Shown here: positions 1 through 58,453 of the stretch, in pieces | How the letters are laid out: the number at the start of each line of letters is the position of its first letter | Numbering within the stretch: position 1 is the stretch's first letter | Source: Candidatus Magasanikiibacteriota bacterium | GTDB lineage: Bacteria > Patescibacteriota > Patescibacteriia > Magasanikbacterales > UBA922 | NCBI GenBank assembly: GCA_041665025.1 | Contig: JBAYJP010000002.1 | Location: 691-64,690 of the forward strand | DNA length: 64,000 nt | Direction: 5' to 3' | The notes under the pieces: model-generated | Databases searched by the model: none | Told to the model about the DNA's origin: nothing | What the model saw: only the letters and a program-made list of their open reading frames with translations | Translations under genes and position numbers: made by a program

Positions 1-2630
<2,630 letters not shown>

Positions 2631-3242
2631 ATACCACAAATATTTATATACTACTTACTTGGTAAATTGTAATGATCATTCACTCAATATCTTCCGCAAA
2701 CATTCTTTCTTTCTTACACACTATACACAACTATGATTATGTACATTGTGCAAAATAAAATTGTTCTAATAAACGTGAAAGATAAATTTTGAAACAAAAT
2801 GACCGCTTCCGGCGGTCATAAACATACAAATATGTTTTGTCTATCCGCTTGGATGCTATGAGTAACGAATTGTCATTTGGTACATCATGATGAACAGGAT
2901 AGTACTAAAGTGTTACCCAGAGGTCCAAGCATATAGAGCGTGTGTCTTTGGACGTGGTTCCCGAGTAGTCGGGAGTGATATTCACGCTCGCATATAGTAT
3001 CTCAACCTCTTATATATGTCAAGCAGAGAGATGTGGATAAGATGTGGGAAAACCAAACAGTATTTTTATGTTAAAATAACTGACTTCTATCAATGTCTCA
3101 ACTCTCATAAAATGTCCCCAAATTCACCAAATTATTCTAATTTCTAATTCACCTAATAAAATTCCAAATACCAATTTGACCTTTTAATTTTTATTAGAAA
3201 TTAGGTGAATTGTAATTTAGGTGAATTTACAATTATTACAAA

Positions 3243-3515
3243 CTAAACAATATTTAAAACAACAATAGTACTTCCTCCATGTTCTTCTAATCCAAATCTT
3301 TTTACGAGTGCATTTTGTTTCAAAGATTCATGAACTTTTTGTTTCAAAATTCCTTCCCCTACTCCGTGAATTACACGGACCTGTTGTTCTCTTTTTTTAT
3401 AAAGATAAAATAATTGTGATTCCAAAAATTCCAGAGCATCTGTTGGATTAGAATATGTATGCAAATCAATAATAGGAAGATTTTGATTGTGATATAACAA
3501 TTCAATGTCTAACAT
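3243..3515 (-). CDS. Smr (small MutS-related) domain protein
   Basis: 90 aa. Motifs IDLHTY...ALEFL and VRVIHGVGEGILKQKV are typical of the Smr domain. Confidence 0.55.
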   Translation of the reverse strand: MLDIELLYHNQNLPIIDLHTYSNPTDALEFLESQLFYLYKKREQQVRVIHGVGEGILKQKVHESLKQNALVKRFGLEEHGGSTIVVLNIV

Positions 3516-3585
3516 GTTGGTATTAAAAAACCTCTCAACGAGGCGTTAAACAAATTTTAAATTATACAAAAATCTATACCAAAGA

Positions 3586-3903
3586 CTATCTAGAATATAA
3601 CAAGACGAAAATAATTTTTCCTAAGACAAATAAGACAGAAAATACACCCAGCATTACGAGAATCCAAAAAAAATAACCCGTACCCTTTATTATCAACTCA
3701 TAGTTGCCAACGTTCTTTTTTAGTTTTTTAAATATAAGACCCACCAACGGTGGCAGACCAATTAAGGCAATAAAAAGTACTATATCAAACCAAGTTTTAT
3801 TTGCATTCAATTTATATAAAAAATAGCCAATCAGAGGAAAATAAGCCAACACCCCGATGGGAATCAAAAAACCGATAACAGTATAAAATACTTTTTTGGT
3901 CAT
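3586..3903 (-). CDS. Small hydrophobic membrane protein, hypothetical
   Basis: The ORF is trimmed to the Met of MTKKVFYTV because the longer ORF runs into the tRNA. Two or three predicted TM helices. Confidence 0.45.
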   Translation of the reverse strand: MTKKVFYTVIGFLIPIGVLAYFPLIGYFLYKLNANKTWFDIVLFIALIGLPPLVGLIFKKLKKNVGNYELIIKGTGYFFWILVMLGVFSVLFVLGKIIFVLLYSR

Positions 3904-3917
3904 AAGAAAATACAATG

Positions 3918-4001
3918 TGCGGGTGAGAGGAATCGAACCTCCACTCCCTTTCGGGAACATGCTCCTAAGGCATGCGCCTATGCCAGTTCGGCTACACCCG
4001 C
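3918..4001 (-). tRNA. tRNA-Leu (anticodon UAG)
   Basis: The reverse complement folds as a cloverleaf with acceptor stem GCGGGTG/CACCCGC. The anticodon loop CTTAGGA gives anticodon TAG. It has a long variable arm TTCCCGAAAGGGAGT and T-arm GGTTCGATTCC. No CCA is encoded. Confidence 0.85.
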
Positions 4002-4134
4002 AGATATTTATGCTTACTTAAAATCTACAAACTAATTTATCCGGCGTAGTCCCGAGTACTCGAGACGAAGACGAACGTCGGCCTTTATTTTAACGCATAG
4101 ATTAAACCATAAAAAATAAATAAAATCAAGATAC

Positions 4135-4167
4135 AAAAAGAACACCCTTTCAGATGTTCTTTAATTT
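4135..4167. repeat. 33-nt direct repeat, copy 1 (aaaaagaacaccctttcagatgttctttaattt). It contains a terminator-like hairpin GAACA-N-TGTTC.
   Basis: Identical to 8406-8438. Confidence 0.8.
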
Positions 4168-4174
4168 CCAAATT

Positions 4175-5629
4175 TTAGGATTTAATGACTGTCACAGTAT
4201 TTTGGTCAGCATTAATCTCGACATTATCTCCATCTTTCAAAAAAGTCGTCGCAAATTTTGTTCCAACTATGCAGGGTATACCGAGTTCGCGTGAAATGAT
4301 AGCAGCATGGCACATTATCCCTCCCTGGTCAGTAATAATTGCGCCGGCCATTCGCATGGCAGTAATATATTCAGGACTAGTCATAGTGGCTACTAACACC
4401 TCCCCCTTCTTCATATTTTTTATTTCTTTTGAATCTCTTATGATATGAACTGTTCCTCTATACAAGCCAGGAGAAGCAGTAGTTCCTAAAAGCGTTGCTT
4501 CCCTCTGTTGTTCTTTTTTTACATGGCGTGATACATATGATTTTGCTTTATTCCCTACAAGCATTTTCACGGCATCATCTTTAAAAATAAACAGGCTATT
4601 TTGTCTACGTTTTTTTAGTTCACTTTCTTCAGTAAAATTTTGTTGCAGAAGTGCTCTTTCCAGTTCTTCAGGGAGATAATATTGCATGAGATCTGTCGAG
4701 GTATGTACGCGTAGAGCTATTTCAGACAACATACGAGCCATATGATAATGGACGATGGTAAATAATTTTTTCTTATGATCCTGCAAATAAACTGCACGGC
4801 GTAAACTACCAAACAATATACTATATTTTTCTTCAATTTTGTATGTTTGTTCTATTTCTTTTTGTCTTTTTTCTAAACTTTTAAAGTAATTTTTACTTTC
4901 AAATAATCGTCGCTCCATCTCATCTTGTTTTAGTAATCTATCCAAAATAACAGAAAAATATTTTTTATCCCACAGATCAAGCCCGTAATCGTAGGGCACC
5001 CAAGAATATGCTTGTTCGTGTTTTGTTATTGCTGCATCAATATTTTTTAGCCGTTTCTTTTTAATCTCTATTGCTATACGAAATAGGTCATCCTCTTCTT
5101 CTTTTGCAAATGACTTTTCTTTCGAAGCAGTCAATACAGAGAAAATAAAAGAGGCTCTCTCCTTATCATAAAAGTTCTCTGCTAGATACTGCTTCAGATA
5201 TGTCCCCAATGACTCTTCGAGACCAATCACTACGGGTTCACTCCAAGCATATGCGTCGGTATACAATGTTATGTGCCGAGAAAATAATTTCCATAGTTCA
5301 TGATTATTTTTTTTGTGTACATCAGTTTTGTATAAGAAAGCTGCGTGTGCACTTAATTTTTCCATTTTTTGATCATATGTCTTTATGGCAAAATCCAAAA
5401 AATTCCTACGTTTTATAACCAGCGCCAAGCTATGCTGTGCCACTTTTCGTACATATGTCTGCGAAGCATACCAATACATCACGCCATCTATATATTGGAC
5501 AAGCGTGGGACCAAACGATATACCAAGAGATTCGTGCATCTTTTTGCAATATGACTGGGCGATGATATATGCATGTGGGATAAGGTGAATGCCTTCTTTC
5601 CGTTGCATGAAAATATAATCTTTGTTCAT
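4175..5629 (-). CDS. Protein with a C-terminal PEP-utilizing mobile (phosphohistidine swivel) domain and no ATP-grasp domain
   Basis: The C-terminus GEVLVATMTSPEYITAMRMAGAIITDQGGIMCHAAIISRELGIPCIVG is the PEP-utilizers signature. The N-terminal ~380 aa match nothing I recognise. Confidence 0.7.
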   Translation of the reverse strand: MNKDYIFMQRKEGIHLIPHAYIIAQSYCKKMHESLGISFGPTLVQYIDGVMYWYASQTYVRKVAQHSLALVIKRRNFLDFAIKTYDQKMEKLSAHAAFLYKTDVHKKNNHELWKLFSRHITLYTDAYAWSEPVVIGLEESLGTYLKQYLAENFYDKERASFIFSVLTASKEKSFAKEEEDDLFRIAIEIKKKRLKNIDAAITKHEQAYSWVPYDYGLDLWDKKYFSVILDRLLKQDEMERRLFESKNYFKSLEKRQKEIEQTYKIEEKYSILFGSLRRAVYLQDHKKKLFTIVHYHMARMLSEIALRVHTSTDLMQYYLPEELERALLQQNFTEESELKKRRQNSLFIFKDDAVKMLVGNKAKSYVSRHVKKEQQREATLLGTTASPGLYRGTVHIIRDSKEIKNMKKGEVLVATMTSPEYITAMRMAGAIITDQGGIMCHAAIISRELGIPCIVGTKFATTFLKDGDNVEINADQNTVTVIKS

Positions 5630-5634
5630 AGAAT

Positions 5635-7122
5635 TTAATTATTATTTTGTGGAGTTAGAATTCGTACTGTACCATGATTGGCTCGCACGGCCACAATATC
5701 ACCAGTTTTAATTTGGGTAGTGGCAGTATGAGTATTTATTATACATGGCTTACCAGCCAAGCGAGCGTTAATAGCCGCATGACAGAGCATACCTCCCGCA
5801 TTGGTCACTATAGCTCCAGCTTTTTTTATAATTTCCAACATACTATCATCAGTCATTTCTGCAATTAAAATTTCTCCAATTTGAAACTTTTTTATATCTT
5901 CTTTTTTTTCTATCACCCGAGCAACCCCCTGGGCATAACCCTGGGCTCCAACTTTTCCTGCTACTGAATGGCCTAGTTCACTTTGTTGTAAAATTTCCTG
6001 TAATTCTTCATAGACTTTTTTAACCTCTGTTCCTTCAATTATTTTATAATCTTTGCCTAATATAGAAAGCAATAGACCCTGATTAAAACGATTTTTCAAA
6101 GTATGTTTTTTAATCAGACCATGCAACAAATTATCCAATTCTTCAAAAGTTAAAAAATATAAAAAATTTGCTTCTACTCCGGTAGTTTTTTCCAATCGTT
6201 TAAATAATTTATTCCACAATTCTTGAACTTGCACATTTACTGTCTGTCGATATTCACGCCATTGTCCCAACTCTTTGAAAAATTCCAAAGGATCCACACT
6301 TAATTTATATTTTTTCAAAATCGTTTTAATAAGCTGGCGATGTTTTTTGGCACGCGCCATTCTCTCTTTGGTCTGCAAGCTTTTGTCCAGAATATTTTCG
6401 CTGGTTAAAAGTTCCGCAATTTCTGCTTGAGTAAAATTATAAATCTTACCAATCCGCGCTACTTCTTTATTATCAAATCCCAAATCAAAGCTATCAATAA
6501 AAATTGCCGTGGACCAAAATTTTTCCAAAGTATTTTGCCACTGCTCCAAAAAATTCAACAATTCGTTAACACCCCATTCTAATGGAAAACCAGTTGCGTA
6601 TTCCTGGCAAAACGCTTCTACCTTTTTCCCATAATCAAAAAAACTTTCTTTTAACTCAAAATGTCGCCGACTTAATTCTCCATATTCTTTATAAACCGCC
6701 TCTGCCATTTCTGCAAATGAGGAAGTAGTATGCCAAAAAACTTCACACACGCCATTTTTAAAATAAACATCGCAAGTGCCCAATCCTTCATCAAAAAATT
6801 TTGGATTAGGATGAATAATGCCAGCAATTCTGGGCCAAAAAATTATAGGACTTAAAGTCAGTATCTGACGATACATTTTGGGGGTGCTTTCTTCATTTTG
6901 TTTGGGTTCAAATTCTACAATATCAGTAATATTCAATCCGTAGCGTTCACAAATCCGATCCAGAGTAGAAAACCATACCCCCTCAGCCTCACCATGATAC
7001 AAAGCTGTAATCGTGTTGCGATTGATACCAGTTTCTTGGCTAATCTCAGAGATATTTTTACCCAATTTTTTCGCTATAGTATGTATTTTTAACTTAATCA
7101 TAATGTAAGTGTTTATAATCAT
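5635..7122 (-). CDS. HTH (XRE-like) domain fused to a protein with a C-terminal PEP-utilizing mobile domain; paralog of 4175-5629
   Basis: The N-terminus IHTIAKKLGKNISEISQETGINRNTITALYHGE is a helix-turn-helix. The C-terminus ILIAEMTDDSMLEIIKKAGAIVTNAGGMLCHAAINARLAGKPCII is the swivel phosphohistidine motif. Confidence 0.7.
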   Translation of the reverse strand: MIINTYIMIKLKIHTIAKKLGKNISEISQETGINRNTITALYHGEAEGVWFSTLDRICERYGLNITDIVEFEPKQNEESTPKMYRQILTLSPIIFWPRIAGIIHPNPKFFDEGLGTCDVYFKNGVCEVFWHTTSSFAEMAEAVYKEYGELSRRHFELKESFFDYGKKVEAFCQEYATGFPLEWGVNELLNFLEQWQNTLEKFWSTAIFIDSFDLGFDNKEVARIGKIYNFTQAEIAELLTSENILDKSLQTKERMARAKKHRQLIKTILKKYKLSVDPLEFFKELGQWREYRQTVNVQVQELWNKLFKRLEKTTGVEANFLYFLTFEELDNLLHGLIKKHTLKNRFNQGLLLSILGKDYKIIEGTEVKKVYEELQEILQQSELGHSVAGKVGAQGYAQGVARVIEKKEDIKKFQIGEILIAEMTDDSMLEIIKKAGAIVTNAGGMLCHAAINARLAGKPCIINTHTATTQIKTGDIVAVRANHGTVRILTPQNNN

Positions 7123-7270
7123 ATTATGGCATATTTATATAATTTTGTCAATATTACACAGTTTTTGTATGGACTATATTACAAAATTAACCTATTTATC
7201 CTTGAAACTTTTAGTGATATATGATAACTTCTCTAGTTCCACCCAATGGACGGGTGGCCGGAGAGAAAAT

Positions 7271-7816
7271 ATGGAAGCTCTGATCATGGCGATCGTGGCC
7301 CTCTTGGGCCAGAGCAGGGGCGAACGGGACCTCAACAAGATTCTGGTCGGGGCAATCGTCAACTACCTGGAGGCTCGGTGCTACCGCACGCTCGAAGACC
7401 TCAAGCGCGCCAACGAGACGCTCATAACCTCGCACAAGGAAATGCGCGAGGCAGAGGGAAGGGCTACGGCAGCAGAGAGGGCTGACGAAAAAATGCGCCG
7501 GCTCTCAAAAAGAGTCGATAAGGCATACTCCCAAATGTTCGAGGCCATGAAGGCGTGCGCTGCTGTCGGGAACCCCGACGAGGGACCCGAGAGGGACAAG
7601 CTTCGGAGCACAACCACGGTGCATTTCCGTATTAGCAGAAAGCTCGGTGACCTGGAAAAGGAAATGGAAGCAGCACCAGAGTTGCTAAAACAGGCCACCA
7701 AAAAATGGGAGGACGCCAAAAAAAGGAAAGGAGATACAGAGGCACGTCTCGAACGTGCCCAGACGGCACTGCGGCATGGGCAGGCCGTCAGGGACTTCCT
7801 GGAGTCCCCTGAGTGA
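7271..7816 (+). CDS. Hypothetical coiled-coil protein, first gene of GC-rich islet 1
   Basis: The start was set at MEALIM, which is preceded by GGAGAG. The upstream part of the longer ORF is AT-rich low complexity. The gene is visibly GC-rich against AT-rich flanks. Confidence 0.5.
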   Translation: MEALIMAIVALLGQSRGERDLNKILVGAIVNYLEARCYRTLEDLKRANETLITSHKEMREAEGRATAAERADEKMRRLSKRVDKAYSQMFEAMKACAAVGNPDEGPERDKLRSTTTVHFRISRKLGDLEKEMEAAPELLKQATKKWEDAKKRKGDTEARLERAQTALRHGQAVRDFLESPE

Positions 7817-7931
7817 CCTTCACGTCGGAGCGGAATTCAACATCCGCCGCAACCAACGCTTCGCTCCGACACATTCGTTTCTTTAAAAACAAAGACGCGA
7901 GTGCAAAATAGCGAAGCGTTGAGATATAAAA

Positions 7932-7960
7932 AACACTGCCCATTACGGCGGTGTTTTTTC
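7932..7960 (+). terminator. Rho-independent terminator
   Basis: Stem cactgcc, loop cattac, stem ggcggtg, then TTTTTT. Confidence 0.6.
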
Positions 7961-8053
7961 TCAATTTGAAAATATGAATATCTTCACAGTCTCAAATCGA
8001 ACGGTGTGGCCTCCAACACACCTTGTTGCTCCCACCTTGAAAGACATTCTTTT

Positions 8054-8344
8054 TCATTGAACCCTCCAACCCTCACGGACGTCGATGCTGTCGCCAGCAT
8101 CCAACTGGCGGAGAACTTCCACGAGCGCGTCCCGAATCGTCAGAAATAGAAGCATCGGCGTGTCTGCCGCGACATCGTCGCCGAAGACATATTCGCCTCT
8201 ACTTTCGAGCATCGCCTGCAGAAGCAGGCGATATGTCCTTGTGCCCGTTTTGTAACCGGGCATGATTGAGATGCCACCCCCTTCTTCGCTGACTACGAAG
8301 AACGTTGCCTGGTTCGGAAGAGCCAAAAACTCTTGAACGGTCAT
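8054..8344 (-). CDS. Hypothetical 96-aa protein, GC-rich islet 1
   Basis: A GGAGGTGA Shine-Dalgarno precedes the ATG on the minus strand. GC-rich. Confidence 0.5.
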   Translation of the reverse strand: MTVQEFLALPNQATFFVVSEEGGGISIMPGYKTGTRTYRLLLQAMLESRGEYVFGDDVAADTPMLLFLTIRDALVEVLRQLDAGDSIDVREGWRVQ

Positions 8345-8405
8345 TGCTATTCACCTCCGTTGCGATTGTAAAATATAATAACATTTCGTATCTTTTTGGT
8401 CAACA

Positions 8406-8438
8406 AAAAAGAACACCCTTTCAGATGTTCTTTAATTT
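8406..8438. repeat. 33-nt direct repeat, copy 2; doubles as a bidirectional terminator downstream of pnp
   Basis: Identical to 4135-4167. Confidence 0.8.
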
Positions 8439-8493
8439 ATAATTTCCAATTTCTTTTTCCGCCTGCCACGTTCTACGTGGTGTCTCCGTGTTT

Positions 8494-10749
8494 TTATCGG
8501 TCTCGTCTAAATCCCCCGCCTCTATTTCCTCCACCACTATTTCCTCTAAACCCACCTCCACGTCTGTCAGATGAACCAGAAGCACTATGACTTGGCTGAT
8601 CTACATATCCTTCTGGCTTTGGTTTCAAGAGTTTCATGGATAAATTCACACGACCGAGTTGGTCAATTTCTTTTACTTTTACTTTTACCATGTCGCCAAT
8701 CTTCAATATATCAGAAGGCTTACCAACGCGTTCCCATGCAATCTCACTTACATGTACCAATCCATCTTGGCCTGGCAAGATTTCTACAAACGCGCCAAAA
8801 TCTTCCAAGCGAGACACTTTTCCTTCAAATTCTTCGCCTGCAGTGACTTCATGAGTCAAATCTTGAATCATCTTAACTGCTTTTCTCATTCCTTCTGCAT
8901 CGTTTGAAGTCACCATCACACGGCCATCTTGTTCAATGTCAATTTGAACACCGGTGTCTTCAATAATTTTATTGATAACTTTTCCACCAGGACCAATAAC
9001 GGCACGAATTTTTTCTGGATTGATTTGAATAGTTTCAATGCGTGGAGCATATTGGGATAATTCTTTGCGAGGTTCTGCAATAGCAGAAGCCATAACACCC
9101 AAAATCTGCAAACGCGCTTCACGAGCTTGTTTAATTGTCTGTTCAACGATATCCCATGTCAAACCATGTGTCTTGGTATCCATTTGAATCGCGGTAATAC
9201 CATCAGCTGTTCCAGCGATTTTGAAATCCATTCCTCCAGGACCATCTTCGACATCTTGCAAGTCAGTCAATACTTTCCAATTTTTTTCATCTGACGCAAG
9301 TCCCATAGCAATACCGGCAACTGGTTTTTGAATAGGTACGCCTGCTGCCATAAGTGACAATGTTGAACCGCATGTTGATGCCATAGAGCTCGATCCATTT
9401 GAACCCAACACTTCGGACACCACGCGAATGGCATAAGGAAAATCTACTTCTTTTGGCAAAACCGGTTCAAGAGCTCGCTCTGCCAAAGCGCCATGCCCAA
9501 TAGCACGACGACTTGGTCCACGCATAGGACCTGCTTCGCCATACGTATATGGACCATCGTTATAATGATGCATGTAACGTTTCTTTCCTTCTTCTTCCAT
9601 GGTATCAAGCGTCTGCACATCACCAGGAGCTCCAAGAGTTACGACAGACAACACCTGTGTGTCTCCACGCATAAACATGGCAGAACCATGCACGCGAGGA
9701 AGCATATCAATACCCACTTGAAGTTCACGAATGTCTGTGAGCTTTCGTCCATCCAAACGCTCAGTCTTACTCAAGATGCGTGCGCTAATTACCTCAGACA
9801 CATATTGCTTGATATTTTTTAATCCAGCTTTGTGTGTGTCTGCTTCAAATCCTTTTTCTGTAAGATATACCTTCAACTGTTCTTCAAATTTAGTAAGCAT
9901 GGTATTGCGTTCATCTTTTGAAACTTTTGGCGCGTCAAAAATCATGTCATCAGTATGATCAATAATATATTTCTTTACTGCTTGGCGAACTTGTTCCTCC
10001 ACATTGTCTTCAATACCTTTCACATCATCTGCAATAGCAGGCAATGCAATTTTTTCTTTTCCCACTTCTTTTTGAATTTTTGCAATCAAATCAATAACAG
10101 GTTTCAATTCCTTACATCCCCATTTCATAGCGTCAAGTGCGATAGATTCTGGAACTTCGTATGCACCAGCCTCTACCATGACTAACTTTTCTGGTGTACC
10201 TGCAACAACCAAATCAAGCTTATTATTTTCTTCTAACTCTTTGGATGTAACATTCAAAATAAATTCACCATTTTCTGTTTGACCAATACGTGCTGCTGCT
10301 ATTGGACCATTCCATTGGATGGGTGAAATAGCCAATGCACAACTGGCGGCAACAAGCGCAGTAACCGCGGCGTCATTTTCTCCGTCAACTGACAGAGCAG
10401 TAACCACAACTTGGACATCATTACGAACGCGTTCATCAAACAAAGGACGAATTGCGCGGTCAATTAGACGTCCCGCGAGAATTGCTTCGTCACTTGGTCT
10501 ACCTTCACGTTTGATAAATCGGGATCCTTTTATTTTCCCTGCGGCATACAATTTTTCTTCAAAATCTACCATGAGTGGAAAATAATCTATTCCATCACGG
10601 ATATTTTTACTCTTGACAACGGTTGCTAAAATCGTGGTGTCTCCATAACGGACAACACAAGAAGCTTGTGCCTGAAGCGCAAGTCTGCCGGTCTCGATGG
10701 AGAGAGTTCGTCCACCCCATTCGATAGACCACTGTTTTGGTTGAAGCAT
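8494..10749 (-). CDS. pnp: Polynucleotide phosphorylase
   Basis: 751 aa with two RNase PH domains, KH and S1 domains, and a C-terminal RGG-rich tail. Confidence 0.95.
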   Translation of the reverse strand: MLQPKQWSIEWGGRTLSIETGRLALQAQASCVVRYGDTTILATVVKSKNIRDGIDYFPLMVDFEEKLYAAGKIKGSRFIKREGRPSDEAILAGRLIDRAIRPLFDERVRNDVQVVVTALSVDGENDAAVTALVAASCALAISPIQWNGPIAAARIGQTENGEFILNVTSKELEENNKLDLVVAGTPEKLVMVEAGAYEVPESIALDAMKWGCKELKPVIDLIAKIQKEVGKEKIALPAIADDVKGIEDNVEEQVRQAVKKYIIDHTDDMIFDAPKVSKDERNTMLTKFEEQLKVYLTEKGFEADTHKAGLKNIKQYVSEVISARILSKTERLDGRKLTDIRELQVGIDMLPRVHGSAMFMRGDTQVLSVVTLGAPGDVQTLDTMEEEGKKRYMHHYNDGPYTYGEAGPMRGPSRRAIGHGALAERALEPVLPKEVDFPYAIRVVSEVLGSNGSSSMASTCGSTLSLMAAGVPIQKPVAGIAMGLASDEKNWKVLTDLQDVEDGPGGMDFKIAGTADGITAIQMDTKTHGLTWDIVEQTIKQAREARLQILGVMASAIAEPRKELSQYAPRIETIQINPEKIRAVIGPGGKVINKIIEDTGVQIDIEQDGRVMVTSNDAEGMRKAVKMIQDLTHEVTAGEEFEGKVSRLEDFGAFVEILPGQDGLVHVSEIAWERVGKPSDILKIGDMVKVKVKEIDQLGRVNLSMKLLKPKPEGYVDQPSHSASGSSDRRGGGFRGNSGGGNRGGGFRRDR

Positions 10750-10930
10750 ATCAGCTTATAGTTATGGCTGATCTTGATACGATAGACCCATATGGATCTA
10801 GGTGTCTCAAGACCAACTCTGGTTAATAATTTATAATTTCAAATTTTGAATTTTAAAACAATTTTAAATTCTAAAATTTTTTAATTCGAAATTGTTTCGA
10901 AATTTAAAATTCAAAATTCAAAATTTTGTC

Positions 10931-11497
10931 TTATCTTTTCACATTTCTCCTACCGCCGAGCATTCCATCTCCAATAAGAAACTTACTTTTGTCTTCCGAT
11001 AGATCAATAAAATCATCCGCTTCTTCTTTCATCTTGCCCGATGCAGTTTCTCCAAATGCCACGACTTCAACTTGTTTGCCCATACTTTGTAAATAGTCTA
11101 CGAGAGGCAAGTAATCTCCATCGCCAGAAACAATGACAATTGCATCCAAACTCGGAGACAAACGAATTGCGTCAACTGCAAGCCCGACATCCCAATCTGC
11201 TTTTTTCATTCCCGTGTTGAATATTTGCAAATCTTTTTCATGCGTCTCTATGCCCAAATTGTACAAGGCTTCAAAAAAAGGCTGTTCTTCTTTGCTTTCG
11301 GTGCGCACAACATAGGCAATCGCGCGAATCAACTTCCTACCTGCGACTGCTTCTTTTACAATATTACCAAAATTAACTTTCTTGCCAAATAAGTTTTTGG
11401 CAGAATAATACATATTCTGCACATCGATAAACACCCCTACGCGTTGGTCGGGGTGTTTCAAAGGATGATTTCTGTGTAGATTATTTTTCATCTTCAT
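10931..11497 (-). CDS. NYN/LabA-like (YacP-type) domain protein
   Basis: Motifs VGVFIDVQNMYY...DWDVGLAVDAI...IVIVSGDGDYLPLV. The start is uncertain; several Met codons overlap the end of rpsO. Confidence 0.7.
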   Translation of the reverse strand: MKMKNNLHRNHPLKHPDQRVGVFIDVQNMYYSAKNLFGKKVNFGNIVKEAVAGRKLIRAIAYVVRTESKEEQPFFEALYNLGIETHEKDLQIFNTGMKKADWDVGLAVDAIRLSPSLDAIVIVSGDGDYLPLVDYLQSMGKQVEVVAFGETASGKMKEEADDFIDLSEDKSKFLIGDGMLGGRRNVKR

Positions 11498-11849
11498 TGG
11501 TATTAGCATCTGCCTCATCTGCATGCGCTCCCTCTATCGCCTCTTCAATTTCCTCAATGTCTTCTTTTTCAATATATTGTTTTGCTTGTTTTAGGTTGAG
11601 TTTTTTCACAAGTTCCTCATACGAGGCGGCATTCTCGCGCTGTAAATATTTGAGTAATTTTCTGCGTTCTCCTACTTTTCGGAGAAGTCCACGGCGTGAT
11701 GAATGATCTTTGTGATGTTTCTTCAAGTGTGAAGCAAGTTCTTCGATTTCGGCAGTGAGAATAGCTACTTGCACTTCTACTGAACCGGTATCTCCCTCAT
11801 GAACTTGGTACTTCTTAATGAGACGCTGTTTTTTCTGTTTTGCGAGCAT
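11481..11849 (-). CDS. rpsO: Ribosomal protein S15 with an acidic C-terminal extension
   Basis: Typical S15 core (LTAEIEELASHLKKHHKDHSSRRGLLRKVGERRKLLKYL) followed by an E/D-rich tail. Confidence 0.85.
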   Translation of the reverse strand: MLAKQKKQRLIKKYQVHEGDTGSVEVQVAILTAEIEELASHLKKHHKDHSSRRGLLRKVGERRKLLKYLQRENAASYEELVKKLNLKQAKQYIEKEDIEEIEEAIEGAHADEADANTNEDEK

Positions 11850-11968
11850 ATCATGCGAATATTTAACGGGCGCATCGTGGGCATGTCCACTATGGTCCGC
11901 TCCCTAATGGGAAATAGATAAAGCGAAATGAGTATAACAAATGGGAGTGACTATGTCAATATCAAACA

Positions 11969-11995
11969 CAAAAACGCCGTACTGAGGCGTTTTTG
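11969..11995. terminator. Bidirectional terminator hairpin
   Basis: aaaaacgccgtactgaggcgtttttg. Confidence 0.55.
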
Positions 11996-12021
11996 TAATA
12001 TTATACTATGGCATGTCTATT

Positions 12022-13368
12022 TTATTGGAGAGGCACCGTAAATCGAAGAGTTTGTACGGTTGCATTTCCTTGGACATCTTCTGCCTCGACACGAACAGTA
12101 TATTGTTTACCAAATGTAAGTGTCCGGGTCTTGAATTCCTCGCCAAATGATTTAGCAAAATTTGGCATGGCATTATTCCAGTACAAGAAGTCTATTCCAA
12201 ATGGTTCATCTTCTGACAAGTACACGGCGACTTTTTTAAGGGGTGTTTGGCTGTCTTGCACTCGTACGTCTATTTCATACTGCCAACCTGTTTCTTTTAG
12301 CTTGCGAGGTATAGCCGCTATAGAAACTTCCGGCGCTGTCACATCATTTACTTTTGTACTTTTGACCGTAAGAATCGCACCGCCATATATATTGTAATTA
12401 TCGTAGCTCACCTTCATTTGATATTGCCCATTTGCGGTGGCAAATGTTTTGGCAGATTCTCCTAGTTTCAGAACTACTTGATTTCTGTCTGCACCCGTAA
12501 GATCCAACGTAACTTCAGAACCCTTGCTATAAAAATGCTGCGTCATGCTCACTTTGCTTGGAGAGTGATACAATGTCATCCCTTCGCACACAATATAGGT
12601 ACCATCAAATACTTTGGTATCTACACACGAGGGAATAGTATGCTTGAGATCTGTTGGAACTGGTGCCACAGAAGTTTCTATTGGTTTGATGTAGAAGTAC
12701 AAAGCGGCAACATCATCAACTTCTCCACCCATGTTTGGTATTGCAGAGACGCCGTCATTATTTTTCACCATTGCAACAAACAAAACATATTTACCTCGGT
12801 AATAATCAGTAACCGTAAAATGCTGCATTTGATTGGTAGTGGTGAACGTAGCATTTTGGAGAAGTGCCTTCACGCGCTGTGGTCCAAAATTTAAATCCTG
12901 TGCTTCGCTTGTATTCCAGATATATGCATATTGATTTGCACTGTTTGTTTGATTTGTTTGCAGAGAAAAATCAAATGCGTTTACTGAGTTTGGCACGTTT
13001 ACTACAGCAGGACGAATGTATGTCTTTGTGTCTTGATATGAAGCGTCATTGCGTGCAAAAACTCCATTTTGATTATATGCACTAAATTCTCCAATATTTG
13101 GCGTCTCACTTACTTCGACCCATTTTACTTTGTATTGCGTACTTGTTACGCAACTCAAACGATACTCACGCAACCCATGTCCCGCGTCACGAACTCCATT
13201 TTTTAGTACATATTCATTGGCGTTACCAAAACGACGCACCATAATGCCGTCCTCAACATTACGGCATGAATCAACGTTCACATTATTTGAATTTGCTCCC
13301 AAACTAACTTGAGGCGCAAGCACTGCAATAATACCAAGCAGTGCGATAGATGAAATTAATTTTTTCAT
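12022..13368 (-). CDS. Secreted hypothetical protein with an N-terminal signal peptide
   Basis: The N-terminus MKKLISSIALLGIIAVLAPQVSLGA is a signal peptide. No recognisable domain. Confidence 0.55.
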   Translation of the reverse strand: MKKLISSIALLGIIAVLAPQVSLGANSNNVNVDSCRNVEDGIMVRRFGNANEYVLKNGVRDAGHGLREYRLSCVTSTQYKVKWVEVSETPNIGEFSAYNQNGVFARNDASYQDTKTYIRPAVVNVPNSVNAFDFSLQTNQTNSANQYAYIWNTSEAQDLNFGPQRVKALLQNATFTTTNQMQHFTVTDYYRGKYVLFVAMVKNNDGVSAIPNMGGEVDDVAALYFYIKPIETSVAPVPTDLKHTIPSCVDTKVFDGTYIVCEGMTLYHSPSKVSMTQHFYSKGSEVTLDLTGADRNQVVLKLGESAKTFATANGQYQMKVSYDNYNIYGGAILTVKSTKVNDVTAPEVSIAAIPRKLKETGWQYEIDVRVQDSQTPLKKVAVYLSEDEPFGIDFLYWNNAMPNFAKSFGEEFKTRTLTFGKQYTVRVEAEDVQGNATVQTLRFTVPLQ

Positions 13369-13546
13369 AGTATAGGTAATTAAAGGTTATGTATAATTTT
13401 GCTCGATCTCCTTGTTCGACCTTGCATACTATAGAACGCTTCCTCACTATCTTTTATTACACATAGATTAAATTATGGCTAGAATAAGCAAAAAAAGAAC
13501 CCTCTTCTGAGAGTTCTTTTTAACTTAGGTACTTAGTCAACTTATC

Positions 13547-14197
13547 TTACTTAGATAACTGTTCTTCAACTTCTTTCACAAAATCAGTAGACTTTTTTTC
13601 CATTCCTTCACCTACTTCATAGCGGACAAAACGACGCAAGGTTATTTTCTCTCCAATTTCTCCAGTCATTGCGGTCAGCAATTGTTCAATTGTCTTGTCT
13701 TCATCTTTGATGAAAGGCTGTTCAAGCAAACACATTTCTGAATAAAATTTACTCATTTTTCCTTCGATGATTTTTTCCACAATCTCTGCCGGCTTATTTT
13801 CTTGTTTCATCTGTTCACGATATACATTTTTTTCGCGTTCCATATCCTCCACGGCAACTTCGGTTCGCGACAAATATCGTGGGTTCATAGCTGCAATATG
13901 CATAGCAATATCGGCACCCAATTGAGAAAACTTGTCATTCTTTGCGACAAAATCTGTTTCAGAATTCAACTCAACTAACACGCCAATTCTTCCGCCGGCA
14001 TGCAAATAACTAAATATTTTTCCTTCTGCGGCGATTTTGTCTGCGCGCTTTGCAGCTTTGGCTGCGCCTTTTTTGCGAAGGATATCAATAGCTTTTTCGT
14101 AATTTCCCTGTGCTTCTTCAAGTGCACTTTTGCAATCCATCATACCAGCGCCTGTTTGGGCACGGAGTTTGGCGATATCTTGTGCGGTAATGCTCAT
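13547..14197 (-). CDS. tsf: Elongation factor Ts
   Basis: The UBA-like N-terminus MSITAQDIAKLRAQTGAGMMDCKSALEEAQGNYEKAIDILRKKG. Confidence 0.9.
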   Translation of the reverse strand: MSITAQDIAKLRAQTGAGMMDCKSALEEAQGNYEKAIDILRKKGAAKAAKRADKIAAEGKIFSYLHAGGRIGVLVELNSETDFVAKNDKFSQLGADIAMHIAAMNPRYLSRTEVAVEDMEREKNVYREQMKQENKPAEIVEKIIEGKMSKFYSEMCLLEQPFIKDEDKTIEQLLTAMTGEIGEKITLRRFVRYEVGEGMEKKSTDFVKEVEEQLSK

Positions 14198-14287
14198 AAA
14201 ATTATTTTAAAATGAAAGAAATAGGGTTTTGGGTTAGGATGCCAGAAATGTAATTCCGGTTTCTTTGCCCAATTCCCAAAACCTATT

Positions 14288-15049
14288 TTATTTCTTATCT
14301 TCAACTTTAGCTTTTACAACAACTGGTGCTTTTGGAGCAAGTGGTTTTTGTATGACTTCTTTTGGAATCTCGGCTACGCCCTCTTTTATCGTATCGCGCA
14401 TAAGGCCGACGATCATTTCAATAGATTTTACTGCGTCGTCATTGGCTGGAATAACATACTGGACTTTGGTTGGATTTGCGTTTGCGTCGCAAACTCCGAT
14501 AATAGGCACGTTCATTCTGTTTGCTTCAGTCACTGCAGTTTTCTCGCGTTGAACAGAAGGGACAAACAACGCATCAGGCATGCGAGTAAGTGAACTCAAA
14601 CCTGCCAAATACGTATCTTGTTTTTCAAGCAATTTAGCAATATCCAATTGTTCTTTCTTCGTATAGTGTCCCAATTCTCCTTTTGCTTGTTTATCCTTGA
14701 GATCATTATACTTGCGAATCAACTTTTTGATTTCAACAAAATTGGTAAGCATACCACCGAGCCACCGCTCAGTCATATAGGGCATACCGCAATCTTGCGC
14801 TGCTTTTTTTACAATTTCGCGTGCTTGAGGCTTGGTGGTCACAAACAAAATTCTCTTCCCTTCGGAAGCCATTTTCTTTATTTCCGGCAACACTTTTTCA
14901 AGTTGCGCTTTTGTCTTGTCCAAATCCAATATATGGACTTGATTGCGTTGGGTAAAGATGAAAGGTTTCATCTTTGGGTGCCAACGCGAAACTCTGTGTC
15001 CAAAGTGGACACCTGCCTGGAGCATGTCCAGTACTGAAGGAATGTTCAT
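14288..15049 (-). CDS. rpsB: Ribosomal protein S2
   Basis: Motifs LQAGVHFGHRVSRWHPKMKPFIF and QVHILDLDKT. Confidence 0.95.
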   Translation of the reverse strand: MNIPSVLDMLQAGVHFGHRVSRWHPKMKPFIFTQRNQVHILDLDKTKAQLEKVLPEIKKMASEGKRILFVTTKPQAREIVKKAAQDCGMPYMTERWLGGMLTNFVEIKKLIRKYNDLKDKQAKGELGHYTKKEQLDIAKLLEKQDTYLAGLSSLTRMPDALFVPSVQREKTAVTEANRMNVPIIGVCDANANPTKVQYVIPANDDAVKSIEMIVGLMRDTIKEGVAEIPKEVIQKPLAPKAPVVVKAKVEDKK

Positions 15050-15068
15050 AATAGTATTTTCCTTTTTA

Positions 15069-15100
15069 ACCGCGTAGTTGCGAAAGCAACTTTACGCGGT
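15069..15100 (-). promoter_or_regulatory. Long hairpin in the rpsB 5' leader, a candidate S2 autoregulatory element
   Basis: accgcgta-gttgcgaaagcaac-tttacgcggt forms a perfect stem immediately upstream of rpsB. Confidence 0.3.
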
Positions 15101-15253
15101 GCCATGTGGTCGTGAAACGACATTGCATGGCCCGCTTCTCCGTTTGCCCCTTTAGGGGGAGGAAAACCTGCGGAGAATGAGGGATAAATAAATGTGCCTT
15201 CCTTTTTAGGAGAGGCGCGCATAGTGTAACAAAGCTCATTTCAGATGTCAAGT

Positions 15254-15451
15254 CTAAACAACTAAGTCACTTAGTTTGATCGCCCCTACAGGACATGAAT
15301 CAACAGCAGCCTGGATAGTACCGTCATCATCAGTTGGATTTTCCAAAGCTTCCGCCTTCCCATCTTCAGTCATGGTAAACGACCCACTACCTAGTGCGGC
15401 ACAAGTGCCACAGCCAATACAAAGATCTTTGTCTACTGTAAATTTGTTCAT
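15254..15451 (-). CDS. 4Fe-4S ferredoxin
   Basis: 65 aa with CIGCGTCAA...CP cluster ligands. Confidence 0.8.
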   Translation of the reverse strand: MNKFTVDKDLCIGCGTCAALGSGSFTMTEDGKAEALENPTDDDGTIQAAVDSCPVGAIKLSDLVV

Positions 15452-15532
15452 AATATATAAAAGAGATAAAACAGGCTTATTGTATCACATATACCTCTTC
15501 AGTCAAACGTGAATAACCTCTATCTTCCTCCC

Positions 15533-15560
15533 TTGACAAAAAACAAGGTTTTGATATAAT
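15533..15560 (+). promoter_or_regulatory. Sigma70-type promoter for rpmE
   Basis: TTGACA (15533-38), a 16-nt spacer, then TATAAT (15555-60). Confidence 0.55.
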
Positions 15561-15617
15561 CATCTGGCTTTTAATTTCTGCGCTTATCTGCGTAGTAATC
15601 TACATAATTCAACGTTT

Positions 15618-15962
15618 ATGAAAAAAGATACTCATCCAAAAGTATATCCCGTTGTTTTCATCGACACATCTTGTGGTGTTGAATTTGTGACTACCTCAAC
15701 CATGAAATCAGAAAAAACTCGCGATATTGACGGAGTTACTTATTTCGAGATACCTATTGAAATTTCTTCAGCTTCTCATCCTTTCTATACCGGCAAGCAA
15801 ATCTTTGTAGATACTGCCCGCCGTGTAGAAAAATTCCAAGAAAAGATGTCGAAAAAAGCTTCTGTTGCAGAAATACGCAAAGGAAAAAAGGTAAAACATG
15901 CCACCCGCGCTGCATCAAAACAAAATGACGAAAAAAAATCAGCGAAAAAAGAAGCTAAATAG
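15618..15962 (+). CDS. rpmE: Ribosomal protein L31 with a Lys-rich C-terminal tail
   Basis: Motifs MKKDTHPKVY...VDTARRVEKF. Confidence 0.85.
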   Translation: MKKDTHPKVYPVVFIDTSCGVEFVTTSTMKSEKTRDIDGVTYFEIPIEISSASHPFYTGKQIFVDTARRVEKFQEKMSKKASVAEIRKGKKVKHATRAASKQNDEKKSAKKEAK

Positions 15963-15978
15963 CAACGAAAAAACAAGA

Positions 15979-16006
15979 CAGGTGACCTTTGTGGCGCCTG
16001 TTTTTA
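15979..16006 (+). terminator. Terminator after rpmE
   Basis: Stem acaggtg/cgcctgt followed by TTTTTATTT. Confidence 0.5.
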
Positions 16007-16009
16007 TTT

Positions 16010-16118
16010 ACTCACGTATCACATAGCACGTAACACATAACAAATAATAATTGTTGTGCTATAATATGCAAGTTGATACGTGATACGTGTTATGTGATAT
16101 GTGTTACGTGACACCTGA
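16010..16118. repeat. Palindromic spacer of the acgtaacacataac / gttatgtgttacgt family; it encloses an extended -10 promoter for prfA
   Basis: The left arm cacgtatcacatagcacgtaacacataac is the reverse complement of the right arm gttatgtgatatgtgttacgtgac. The centre holds TGcTATAAT at 16056-16064. Confidence 0.6.
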
Positions 16119-16123
16119 AATAT

Positions 16124-17182
16124 ATGTTACAAAAATACCTTGACCTCAAAACTAAATACCAACAACTCGAAGCAGATTTACAAAATCCTGCTGTTATTAA
16201 TGATCAAAAAAAATTAAAACAAATTGCTCAGGAATATGATGATATCAAAGAAACTGCAGCAAAAATATTGGAACTTGAAACGACAGAAAAAAATATAGGT
16301 GAAAACGAAGCCATTATCACAGATGCCAGTGACGCCGAACTTTCTGAACTTGCACAAGCTGATATACCTATACTTGCTGAAAAAAAGACAACGCTTGAAC
16401 AAGAGCTAGCCGAACTAACTCGGACGAAAGATCCTATGGACAAAAAAGACGTCATCGTCGAAATACGCGCAGGTGCCGGGGGTGATGAAGCGGCACTGTT
16501 TGCCGGAGACCTCATGCGTATGTATATGAGATATGCAGAAAACAAAGGATGGAAAACAAAGCTCATTGATGAAAGCCGCATTGGCATTGGCGGATACAAA
16601 GAAATAATTTTTTCAATGGAAGGAACCCGCGTCTATGCTGACATGAAGTATGAAATGGGTGTACACCGTGTGCAACGCGTCCCTGAAACTGAAAAAGCCG
16701 GGCGCATACACACATCTACCGCAAGTGTTGCCGTGCTTCCTGAAATTGAAGAAGCTGAATTTGAAATCAATACAAAAGATTTGCGCATAGACACATTTTG
16801 CGCAGGGGGGCATGGTGGTCAAAGCGTCAACACCACACACAGTGCGGTACGTATTACCCATATTCCTACGAATACCGTGGTCCAATGCCAGGATGAACGA
16901 TCCCAACAACAGAATAAATTCAAAGCAATGAATGTCTTGCGTGCACGCTTGTATGAACTAGATAGAGAAAAAAAGATGGCAGCACTCGACGCCAAACGCA
17001 AAAGCCAAATTGGAAATGCAGACCGCAGTGAAAAAATCCGCACGTACAATTTTCCCCAAGACCGCATCACTGACCACAGAATCCACGAGAGTTGGAATAA
17101 TATTGGTATAATTTTAAATGGCGATTTGGAAAAAATTATTGAGGCATTGAGAAAGGTGGATTACGAAGGACAAAGCCAATGA
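16124..17182 (+). CDS. prfA: Peptide chain release factor 1
   Basis: GGQ motif ([12 protein letters not shown]). The RF1-type tripeptide region reads RVPETE (PET rather than PAT). The gene ends with TGA. Confidence 0.9.
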
Positions 17183-17194
17183 CGTTAATACATT

Positions 17195-21467: not shown

Positions 21468-21646
21468 CTCAAATTCAAGAGCGTGGCATAGTAAATTCAT
21501 TATGAAACTTTGGAATGTACAATTTGTTTCTTCTAGCTCATCAGACCTGCCCAAGGTCAGATGAGCTTTATGTTGTTGAATAACAAAAACATAACGCGCA
21601 GCTGGCCTAAGTGGGCCAGTTTTTGTTCACCCACAGGAGGATAACC

Positions 21647-21982
21647 GTGAGATATCGTGGCACTATGGGAGCGTTCATCCCGGTCGAAGAAGTCGCGAGA
21701 GCATTCCGCAAGCATGGATGGGAAGTTACCATCGACGAGGACAAGATCGTCTTCACCAAGGACGGCAGAAGCGGTTGGCATCGTTACACCACAGACGGCG
21801 GATGCAAGAAGGAGGACAGACGAATCAACTGCCCCTGCTACCCCACCATCAATCCGCCACAGCCTGGTGACACATGGGCGCAGGAAAGATTCGACATCTA
21901 CGAAGAGCTCGAGTTGATCCAAAAAGAAGCAAACCCACACTTCACGCCTGGGCGCCGCGGGTTCGACGGCCCAATCTGCTGA
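21647..21982 (+). CDS. Hypothetical 111-aa protein, GC-rich islet 2
   Basis: GTG start 7 nt after AGGAGG (21635-40). Alternative start at the ATG of MGAFIP. GC-rich; contains CPCYP. Confidence 0.5.
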   Translation: MRYRGTMGAFIPVEEVARAFRKHGWEVTIDEDKIVFTKDGRSGWHRYTTDGGCKKEDRRINCPCYPTINPPQPGDTWAQERFDIYEELELIQKEANPHFTPGRRGFDGPIC

Positions 21983-21996
21983 TGGAGGGCAACATG

Positions 21997-22302
21997 CCGC
22001 GAGACATCCTTGACATCGCCCGTCAAGCAGTTGTAGTCGATGCAACGGCCACTACTCCAGACGACCTCATTTTGACTCTTCAGTACTGGTGGACGGATGG
22101 AGCAGAAAGCCTCGGACTGCCCGTCAGAAAGTTCACCGAAGACATTCCACCCAACATCAAGGTCGGCATGAAGCTGGGGACCCTTATCAGAGTAGATGAC
22201 GAGGGGTACGTACTCATCGGGCTCATCACTGAACTCGATAAACACAACACTGAAGTCGTCACTACTATTGCTTTGGTCCCCACCAACGAACTCACTCTCT
22301 AG
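21997..22302 (+). CDS. Hypothetical 101-aa protein, GC-rich islet 2
   Basis: GGAGGG lies 5 nt before the ATG of MPRDIL. A terminator-like hairpin follows at about 22375-22410. Confidence 0.5.
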   Translation, partial: PRDILDIARQAVVVDATATTPDDLILTLQYWWTDGAESLGLPVRKFTEDIPPNIKVGMKLGTLIRVDDEGYVLIGLITELDKHNTEVVTTIALVPTNELTL

Positions 22303-22466
22303 CCTACTTTCACCCGCTGCCGAGTTGCCGGACTCGTTCAAAATCCGGCACACATACAATGCGCGTATTGTACAAAACAAACACCAGCCTATAGAGCTGG
22401 TTTTGTTTTTTATCCAAGTAGTAGTCAATATGATAATGTAGCAATTCTCAAAAATTTCTCCAATTT

Positions 22467-29785: not shown

Positions 29786-29813
29786 AATACATATCACATA
29801 ACATGTATTACAT

Positions 29814-29846
29814 AAAAAAACTCGGACGTAGTCCGGGTTTTTATTT
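29814..29846. terminator. Bidirectional terminator
   Basis: aaaaaaactcggacgtagtccgggttttt. Confidence 0.6.
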
Positions 29847-31297: not shown

Positions 31298-31450
31298 ATT
31301 CACATAACACATATCACATAACACATAACAAACCTGAAAGGGTTTGTTTTTGTCATAATAATTAGCTAACTTCAATACATTTTGCTATAATTATCTATAA
31401 TCTTGAATCTTTTCTGCCTTGATTCTTTATATACTAACTAACCAATATAT

Positions 31451-58372: not shown

Positions 58373-58379
58373 CACATAA

Positions 58380-58452
58380 CAAAAATAAACTCCTATCCGG
58401 GAGTTTATTTGATACGTGATACGTGATACGTGATACGTGATACGTGTTATGT
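58380..58452. repeat. Bidirectional terminator hairpin flanked by acgtaacacataac and a 4x gatacgt tandem
   Basis: cgtaacacgtaacacataac - aaaaataaactcctatccgggagtttattt - gatacgtgatacgtgatacgtgatacgtgttatgtg. Confidence 0.6.
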
Positions 58453-58453
58453 G

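Follow-up and report, generated by a model that had tools for sequence, protein, structure and literature searches.

An islet of GC-rich DNA carrying two small genes was analysed in a stretch of 64,000 nucleotides (hereafter the window; positions 691-64,690 of contig JBAYJP010000002.1, assembly GCA_041665025.1) from a metagenome-assembled genome of Candidatus Magasanikbacteria, a member of the candidate phyla radiation (CPR; Patescibacteria) with a genomic GC content of about 40%. The islet occupies positions 7239-8351, encodes open reading frame 1 (ORF1) and ORF2 and makes up the right-hand third of a block of 4,271 bp (4135-8405), which also contains a pair of core genes named here HTH-PEP and PEP2. 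On balance, we favour the interpretation that ORF1 and ORF2 are real orphan genes and represent horizontally exchanged, variable cargo of this accessory block. Both genes would be separately transcribed, foreign and of GC-richer compositional origin. The block would have been inserted between pnp, the polynucleotide phosphorylase gene, and a tRNA-Leu gene, with duplication of the pnp terminator as 33-bp direct repeats. Its core would provide a promoter, a palindromic operator, a hairpin in the 5′ untranslated region (5′ UTR), a Shine-Dalgarno (SD) sequence and the first few codons for whichever ORF occupies a divergent slot, so that the body of ORF1 could be exchanged between genomes as a cassette. 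ORF2 would be an extra, 'moron-like' unit (own promoter, SD sequence and ORF, shared terminator), added between the slot and pnp. The evidence comes from base composition, the boundaries of the insertion, the absence of the genes from relatives, the conserved flanks of the slot and the mobility of the core.

The features of the two genes are as follows (GC3, GC content at third codon positions):
7271-7816, plus strand: ORF1 (NCBI WCW16_01470), 181 aa, helical or coiled-coil-like orphan, GC 0.58, GC3 0.69
7260-7265, plus strand: SD sequence of ORF1, GGAGAG, 5 nt ahead of the ATG
8054-8344, minus strand: ORF2 (NCBI WCW16_01475), 96 aa, acidic orphan, GC 0.55, GC3 0.62
Reverse complement of 8352-8358, minus strand: SD sequence of ORF2, GGAGGTG, 7 nt ahead of the ATG
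8375-8403, minus strand: predicted sigma-70-like promoter of ORF2 itself, AT-rich (TTGACC, 17 nt, TATTAT)
7928-7959, no strand assigned: predicted bidirectional intrinsic terminator T1 (AAAAAACACTGCC...GGCGGTGTTTTTT), common to ORF1 and ORF2

The GC content of the islet is 54%, compared with 40% for the genome. Change-point analysis located an abrupt rise at 7239 and a fall at approximately 8324-8351, which confirms the compositional jump noted in an earlier, sequence-only reading of this DNA. The background of roughly 35% GC given there holds only for the immediate flanks of the islet (31-36%). By segment, GC content is 22.6% in the intergenic region 7123-7237, 58% in 7238-7870, 35% in 7871-7989 and 53% in 7990-8351, and lower beyond; the islet thus consists of two GC-rich blocks separated by a spacer of 35% GC. 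With a GC fraction of 0.540 it exceeds every other 1.1-kb segment of the window outside the 23S rRNA gene (mean 0.396, sd 0.031). GC3 reaches 0.687 in ORF1 and 0.619 in ORF2. Among 62 ORFs of the window the median is 0.347 (sd 0.037, estimated from the median absolute deviation), which corresponds to robust z-scores of 9.1 and 7.3 for the two islet ORFs. Outside the two GC-rich islets that the window contains, no ORF of this set has a GC3 above 0.46; the rest of the window includes ordinary housekeeping genes. The ORF1/ORF2 islet thus displays the atypical composition and codon usage of horizontally acquired islets.

ORF1 and ORF2 are convergent, tail to tail. The sequence-only reading had described two divergent genes of these sizes, each preceded by a strong ribosome-binding site and followed by its own terminator; sizes and SD sequences stood, but orientation and terminators had to be revised, since T1 serves both genes and an additional ORF2 hairpin at 8003-8022 is at most weak. 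Promoters and terminators of both genes were called by consensus scans only. Because GC-rich DNA has few stop codons, ORF length is weak evidence for coding: open frames of equal length arose in 3% of shuffled sequences for ORF1 and in 17% for ORF2. Better evidence comes from the periodicity of GC content over codon positions, which follows the order GC2 < GC1 < GC3 in the annotated frames (chi-square test, p = 1.7e-6 for ORF1 and p = 0.0016 for ORF2). All three positions are shifted towards GC, the encoded proteins are rich in the amino acids GARP (0.27-0.32) and poor in FYMINK (0.19-0.22), and K/(K+R) is 0.13-0.44 compared with a host median of 0.67. These shifts point to the composition of a GC-richer proteome. 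Our confidence that a protein is encoded is good for ORF1 and moderate for ORF2.

It is very improbable that one or both frames encode no protein, with the DNA specifying a structured non-coding RNA or being inert foreign material in which open frames arose by chance. Such a reading could draw on the scarcity of stop codons, on the ENA gene calling, which passed over ORF2, and on the very stable fold of the 3′ region of the ORF1 slot (-62.8 kcal/mol, z = -8.4). However, it leaves unexplained the codon periodicity and the fact that each ORF has a correctly spaced SD sequence together with a predicted promoter and terminator. Rfam searches of the islet, a low-threshold search included, gave no match at gathering score or with a convincing E-value, and the alternative reading frames matched nothing. 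Strong structure within the islet is confined to the 3′ UTR.

Both proteins had been called unrecognisable, and extensive searches bear this out. ORF1, ORF2 and two ORFs of the second islet (see below) were compared with Pfam, PHROGs, PADLOC and NCBIfam, which returned nothing except coiled-coil noise for ORF1; these weak matches include SMC-like defence proteins. A word-indexed search of 5.8 billion proteins recovered ORF1 and ORF2 themselves only. An exhaustive phmmer search with ORF2 against 1.84 billion representatives yielded, besides itself, three tandem-repeat proteins, which were judged spurious as their scores are sums of weak repeats. A sequence search of the PDB with both proteins gave no match, and relatives were likewise not found in about 2 Mb of related loci. 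The AlphaFold2 model of ORF2, computed from the single sequence with no alignment, had a pLDDT of 44, too low to use. Both islet proteins are presumably accessory, and ORF1, as a helical or coiled-coil protein, may have a structural or adaptor role. The proposed phage source found no backing: besides the PHROGs comparison, blastn and tblastn of the islet against phages and plasmids (INPHARED among the sets) and scans of IMG/VR with the islet ORFs gave no match.

The limits of the inserted DNA were defined by a direct repeat, with the following features in and beside the block:
4135-4174, no strand assigned: left direct-repeat copy, equal to the pnp terminator hairpin, directly 3′ of the PEP2 stop codon
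4175-5629, minus strand: PEP2 (core gene 2), 484 aa, helical N-terminal part and C-terminal phosphohistidine swivel domain (PF00391), GC about 35%
5635-7122, minus strand: HTH-PEP (core gene 1), Xre-type helix-turn-helix (HTH) domain (PF13443), rifampin-phosphotransferase-like helical domain and swivel His domain
7123-7151, minus strand: predicted sigma-70-like promoter of HTH-PEP (TTGACA, 17 nt, CATAAT; 11/12 matches)
8406-8445, no strand assigned: right direct-repeat copy, holding the pnp intrinsic terminator (8408-8433, minus strand)
3917-4001, minus strand: tRNA-Leu gene
1-2609, minus strand: 23S rRNA gene

A perfect 33-nt repeat (4135-4167 = 8406-8438; 37/40 identical over 4135-4174 and 8406-8445) encloses PEP2, HTH-PEP, ORF1 and ORF2. 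It came to light through the Logan contig, whose start and end share one sequence, and no other repeat of this kind is present in the window. Removal of the block together with one repeat copy restores the order pnp, terminator, 134 nt and tRNA-Leu, as it occurs in related Magasanikbacteria. In 79 pnp loci of GTDB species representatives, tblastn detected none of the four genes of the block; in locus L084, described below, the same site is occupied by different cargo. Insertion signatures are therefore present, namely 33-nt repeats and a tRNA gene 134 nt away, and they bound 4.27 kb rather than the 1.1-kb islet. The block as a whole has 39.9% GC, equal to the genome average, because its two core genes are AT-rich (35.5%). 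Since the inserted unit includes AT-rich genes, the GC boundaries of the islet represent limits of transcription units and not insertion junctions.

The sequence-only reading had raised an assembly chimera as an alternative, whereby foreign reads would have been mis-joined into a CPR contig. The abrupt change in composition within a metagenome-assembled genome would fit, but the islet and both junctions are 100% identical in the NCBI/JGI contig (278,561 bp), an ENA MEGAHIT k141 contig (440 kb) and a Logan contig (4,298 bp, an exact match to window positions 4138-8435), and a 33-nt repeat should not be able to create a false join at k = 141. A chimera would also require two junctions per block. 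Moreover, the flanks have homologous counterparts in L084, where they surround another GC-rich ORF, and host-style AT-rich promoters adjoin the GC-rich ORFs. We consider a chimera scarcely credible. The protein cluster of ORF1 also holds gene calls from the ENA and Logan contigs. Compared with window positions 1-17816, the ENA contig shows four mismatches; because all of them fall at 16582-16606, there is no polymorphism within the islet for testing selection. Exact-protein look-ups of pnp and of a neighbour of the second islet for population variants returned the same ENA contig only.

The core pair is conserved in other genomes and is not tied to pnp. In L082/L083 an HTH-PEP/PEP2 pair with 86% amino acid identity is located between pilus genes and bounded by a 21-nt repeat (20/21 identical) of the local terminator hairpin. 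In L085 a core with 93% identity adjoins the rpoC terminator. L084 carries a pnp gene 91.6% identical to that of the window and has the same pnp/tRNA-Leu site filled, with core genes that are only 46% and 51% identical. The core pair thus moves between chromosomal sites. HTH-PEP has 35% GC and a GC3 of 0.28; a start at 7101 (488 aa) is preferred by three annotation pipelines and by alignment. Its AlphaFold model, based on 16 homologues, reached a pLDDT of 82.8, with the Listeria rifampin phosphotransferase RPH-Lm as the best Foldseek match (E = 2.5e-10). NCBIfam gave partial matches only, to the C-terminal halves of the phosphoenolpyruvate (PEP) synthase, PigC and RPH models. As in these enzymes, a C-terminal swivel phosphohistidine domain follows a helical domain, a likeness that concerns the core genes and not the islet proteins. 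In contrast to them, both core proteins lack an ATP-grasp and a PEP-binding domain, and an Xre-type HTH domain is fused to the N-terminus of HTH-PEP. The N-terminal 190 residues of HTH-PEP weakly resemble Stl of SaPI2 (8q86, E = 3.7e-4), which is the master repressor of that island (PMC11846896). The pair is not listed in PADLOC and was not found in IMG/VR; a literature search gave no account of a CPR system that combines HTH and swivel domains.

Distant HTH-PEP loci hold further genes. In L103 (3874-4821 and 4929-5681) and L107 (209-979 and 1087-1662) the slot gene encodes a histidine-phosphatase-like protein with an RH motif, and beside it in L103 there is a separate gene whose product has the motif GGKGASLGEM, apparently that of the PEP-synthase ATP-grasp domain (PPDK_N-like). 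This suggests that the full system might be a split enzyme similar to rifampin phosphotransferase or PEP synthase, together with a phosphatase. Directly beside the duplicated terminator of L082, a cluster of heptamer-like repeats is found at 9020-9090. Similar intergenic clusters, with TGATACG/TGTTATG and the complement ACACATAAC, occur in the window at 16018-16118, 29793-29819, 31306-31332 and 58357-58475, and form inverted pairs in a REP-like manner.

ORF1 lies in a divergent position opposite HTH-PEP, which we refer to as the slot and which is framed by the following elements:
7163-7186, no strand assigned: palindrome TTTTGTA-N10-TACAAAA between the two divergent promoters, kept in the window, L085, L082 and L084
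7202-7230, plus strand: promoter-like site of the slot (TTGAAA, 17 nt, TAACTT)
7239-7265, plus strand: 5′ UTR hairpin (CCACCC-AATGGAC-GGGTGG) followed by the SD sequence GGAGAG, shared with L084; GC-rich DNA begins here
7820-7921, plus strand: 3′ flank of the slot, motif TCACGTCGGAG and a long imperfect hairpin (arms 7854-7884 and 7891-7921), about 88% identical to L084

Homology of the window DNA to L082 (4180-7205) and L085 (4200-7186) ends in both cases where the GC-rich DNA starts. In a four-way alignment of the divergent intergenic region (window, L082, L084 and L085), the TTGAAA of the slot promoter is conserved and followed after 16-17 nt by TAATTT, TATTAT or TATAAT in L084, L085 and L082. 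The comparison with L084 extends further: promoter, palindrome, 5′ UTR hairpin, SD sequence and the start ATGGA are kept, the ORFs are unrelated past approximately codon 5, and homology of about 88% returns some 4 nt past the ORF1 stop codon and runs through the long hairpin and T1. Unrelated ORF bodies between conserved flanks indicate that the ORF body was replaced. Occupants of the slot are ORF1 in the window, a protein with a B12-binding domain in L085, uncharacterised proteins of 141 aa (L082) and 121 aa (L084), and histidine-phosphatase-like proteins in the more distant loci. The slot of L084 holds one gene only, and the region 7960-8500, comprising ORF2, its promoter and the adjacent repeat copy, has no counterpart there, indicating that ORF2 is a separate, added unit. 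The palindrome is probably the operator of the HTH protein, which would then control transcription of ORF1. Sequestration of the SD sequence by the 5′ UTR hairpin was considered and rejected, as the fold is not significant (z = -1.6) and the outer stem lies upstream of the predicted transcription start.

Slot genes are usually GC-rich. In loci with a divergent upstream ORF, GC3 of the slot ORF exceeded that of HTH-PEP in 19 of 21 cases (mean difference +0.18, Wilcoxon p = 2.4e-4), and in 14 of 16 loci its GC content was above that of the remaining locus sequence (p = 0.005); these p-values are indicative only, since the loci are not independent and some ORFs may have been picked wrongly. This pattern is not predicted by simple recent transfer without amelioration. 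Two explanations offer themselves, a shared pool of GC-rich cassettes and a GC bias linked to recombination. GC-rich CPR relatives exist, e.g. L061 with 54.5% GC, and frequent gene flow among Patescibacteria has been described (PMC12455944). The cargo would stem from a pool of GC-richer, mainly CPR genes and would have been acquired horizontally, with recombination taking place in the conserved flanks.

A simpler account is that a 1.1-kb fragment arrived by itself from a high-GC bacterium or phage and has not yet drifted to host composition. The extreme composition at all codon positions and in amino acid usage, the absence of ORF1 and ORF2 from the pnp loci of relatives, the orphan status of both proteins and the second, similar islet at 21595-22365 are all in line with it. 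Nevertheless, we consider it unlikely, if the most serious of the alternatives. The repeats bound 4.27 kb instead of 1.1 kb, the GC boundaries coincide with a promoter and 5′ UTR that are conserved in other genomes, slot genes are GC-enriched across the locus family, and no phage signal was found. Of the recent horizontal acquisition proposed in the sequence-only reading, the horizontal part is upheld by the absence from 79 pnp loci, the repeat-bounded insertion and the shifted composition; that it was recent cannot be shown, because GC enrichment of the slot gene runs through the locus family as a whole, conserved histidine phosphatases included.

The same pattern could arise in place, if the slot were a recombination hotspot where GC-biased gene conversion or another local bias keeps the occupants GC-rich; ORF1 and ORF2 would then perhaps be very fast-evolving or newly born genes and not imports. 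That recombination enriches bacterial DNA in GC has been proposed (PMC4450053), the enrichment of slot genes extends to the conserved histidine-phosphatase partners, and a hypervariable lipoprotein gene near tRNA-Leu in relatives (see below) is of similar construction. We nonetheless judge in-place enrichment to be improbable. The ORF bodies are non-homologous and of unequal length between conserved flanks, which argues for replacement and not divergence, and ORF2 is equally GC-rich yet lies outside the slot. The statistical support for this reading is further subject to the dependence between loci and the possibly spurious ORFs mentioned above.

The lipoprotein gene was observed in four relatives (L007, 12712-13524; L008, 5286-6053; L016, 14097-14999; L005, 13507-14349) as an islet of about 800 nt with 51-54% GC, peaking at 0.58 in 200-nt windows, between tRNA-Leu and the Smr and 23S genes. 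The encoded protein has a signal peptide and an L-x-G-C lipobox; neither Pfam nor Rfam gave a match to this islet. Conservation covers an AT-rich promoter (TTGACA...TATACT), the 3′ hairpin and the 5′ end of the gene, and the GC-rich body is hypervariable, which is the same pattern of conserved flanks and variable body as in the ORF1 slot.

In search of known systems with such properties, phage morons and genomic islets deserve attention. In the sense of Hendrix and Juhala, these are single ORFs with their own promoter and factor-independent terminator, of atypical composition and situated between existing genes. ORF2 fits this description closely and ORF1 fits except for its promoter. Both have a predicted promoter (TTGACC/TATTAT for ORF2, TTGAAA/TAACTT for ORF1) and the predicted intrinsic terminator T1. 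However, the location is not a prophage or phage: the block contains no phage genes, and no match in PHROG, INPHARED or IMG/VR was found.

Integrons share with the present locus a platform in which a conserved gene is divergent from the promoter driving a variable ORF. Like integron cassettes, the slot ORFs are small, mostly orphan and compositionally atypical, with an imperfect inverted repeat at the end. Close relatives carry different payloads, which are in this sense exchangeable, with expression predicted to start from the platform promoter. In contrast to integrons, the platform gene encodes an HTH/phosphotransfer protein, and there is no adjacent IntI tyrosine recombinase. The ends of the inverted repeat at 7854-7921 (AACCAAC/GTTGAGA) do not fit the attC consensus RYYYAAC/GTTRRRY, and a G-T pair in L084 suggests that this hairpin may pair at the RNA rather than the DNA level. 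Furthermore, there is one slot and no array, and the 3′ element was not found at other loci.

In cargo hotspots of integrative elements and satellites, conserved core genes likewise flank a position at which unrelated accessory genes are swapped, and in SaPIs with Stl-type master repressors an Xre-type repressor likewise faces a divergent promoter, the resemblance to Stl being marginal. In contrast to such elements, the block carries no integrase, packaging or replication genes and is only 4.3 kb long. Transposons and insertion sequences do not fit, as no transposase is encoded and the repeats differ in length (33-40 nt here, 21 nt in L082). The sole end-like inverted repeat, a 19-nt pair at 7194-7212 and 8627-8645 (17/19 complementary) that brackets the islet, was judged to be a chance occurrence because its right arm lies within the pnp coding sequence. 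In terms of these families, the islet is best classed as horizontally exchanged orphan cargo in a cargo-slot arrangement and not as a member of the moron, integron or transposon family.

A functional pair formed by ORF1 and ORF2, such as a toxin-antitoxin system or an anti-phage effector with its immunity protein, is highly improbable. Small, adjacent, fast-evolving orphans in a mobile context and the weak coiled-coil matches of ORF1 to SMC-like defence proteins might suggest it. In contrast to the co-transcribed pairs with family signatures typical of type II toxin-antitoxin systems, the two genes are convergent with separate promoters, the slot gene of L084 occurs without ORF2, and PADLOC, Pfam and NCBIfam show nothing beyond coiled-coil noise.

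Several observations weigh against the interpretation that ORF1 and ORF2 are exchanged cargo of the accessory block. The conserved 3′ flank is limited to the window and L084, and a covariance model of it detected no other copy in related loci totalling about 2 Mb. This flank may therefore belong to the local chromosome and not to a cassette platform. Conserved histidine-phosphatase slot genes are GC-rich as well (0.62 vs 0.47 in L103, 0.56 vs 0.33 in L107), which is not obviously explained by repeated transfer. The open frame of ORF2 is no longer than chance allows in GC-rich DNA. Homology searches gave self-matches only, without a donor lineage or a homologue elsewhere, so that direction and source of transfer are unproven. 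The block encodes no recombinase, integrase or transposase. Direct repeats vary in length between the window (33-40 nt) and L082 (21 nt), and none flank L084, L103 or L107. An exact search for the 33-nt repeat in metagenome and viral contigs was negative, and no contig with an empty site or a circular junction was recovered.

A broader and more speculative version, which we regard as doubtful, is that CPR bacteria carry an undescribed small mobile platform consisting of an Xre-HTH/split rifampin-phosphotransferase-like pair with swapped, systematically GC-rich payloads, of which ORF1 and ORF2 would be examples. Such a platform would insert at the intrinsic terminators of housekeeping genes and duplicate them, encoding no known recombinase. 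It would possess a single, operator-controlled slot with payloads swapped at the ORF boundaries, and the GC content of the payload might reflect a shared GC-rich cassette pool or recombination-driven GC-biased gene conversion. By itself, a GC-rich islet of orphans is an ordinary sign of gene transfer. Less ordinary are the tie to a conserved, mobile and recombinase-free gene pair, the exact replacement of ORFs between conserved regulatory flanks and the GC enrichment of slot genes across many CPR genomes of differing base composition. If correct, this would point to a cassette-like exchange of genes among ultra-small bacteria, in which gene flow is little understood, or, alternatively, to a natural setting for a clean test of whether GC bias in bacteria is linked to recombination. 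In either case, the HTH protein, the palindrome and the divergent promoter offer a concrete regulatory context for studying two orphan proteins.

The window contains a second GC-rich islet at 21595-22365 (55% GC), with two co-directional small ORFs, both preceded by a GGAGG-type SD sequence and enclosed by hairpin terminators on both sides:
21647-21982: ORF with GTG start, 111 aa, GC3 0.67
21994-22302: ORF of 102 aa, GC3 0.60
Searches of Pfam, PHROG, PADLOC and NCBIfam gave no match for this islet, which also lacks flanking direct repeats and an HTH-PEP gene nearby.

Further observations concern the surroundings of the block. Polynucleotide phosphorylase ends in a glycine/arginine-rich tail (GGGFRGNSGGGNRGGGFRRDR, encoded at 8494-8560), which is shared with relatives. 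Between the pnp terminator and tRNA-Leu, L007 (12290-12480) and the equivalent regions of L008, L016 and L005 contain a GC-rich hairpin-like element (GGGTGAGGTGGA...CCACCCCACCC) that is absent from the window. The 23S rRNA gene is preceded by a small Smr-domain gene and not by a 16S gene. At 1740-1874 it includes about 115 nt that the 23S genes of relatives lack, their corresponding flanking segments being separated by approximately 20 nt; the extra stretch may represent an intervening sequence or an expansion segment. Finally, a 68-nt direct repeat (62063-62130 and 62267-62334, 99% identical) with copies 204 nt apart is located within the ORF 61739-62926.

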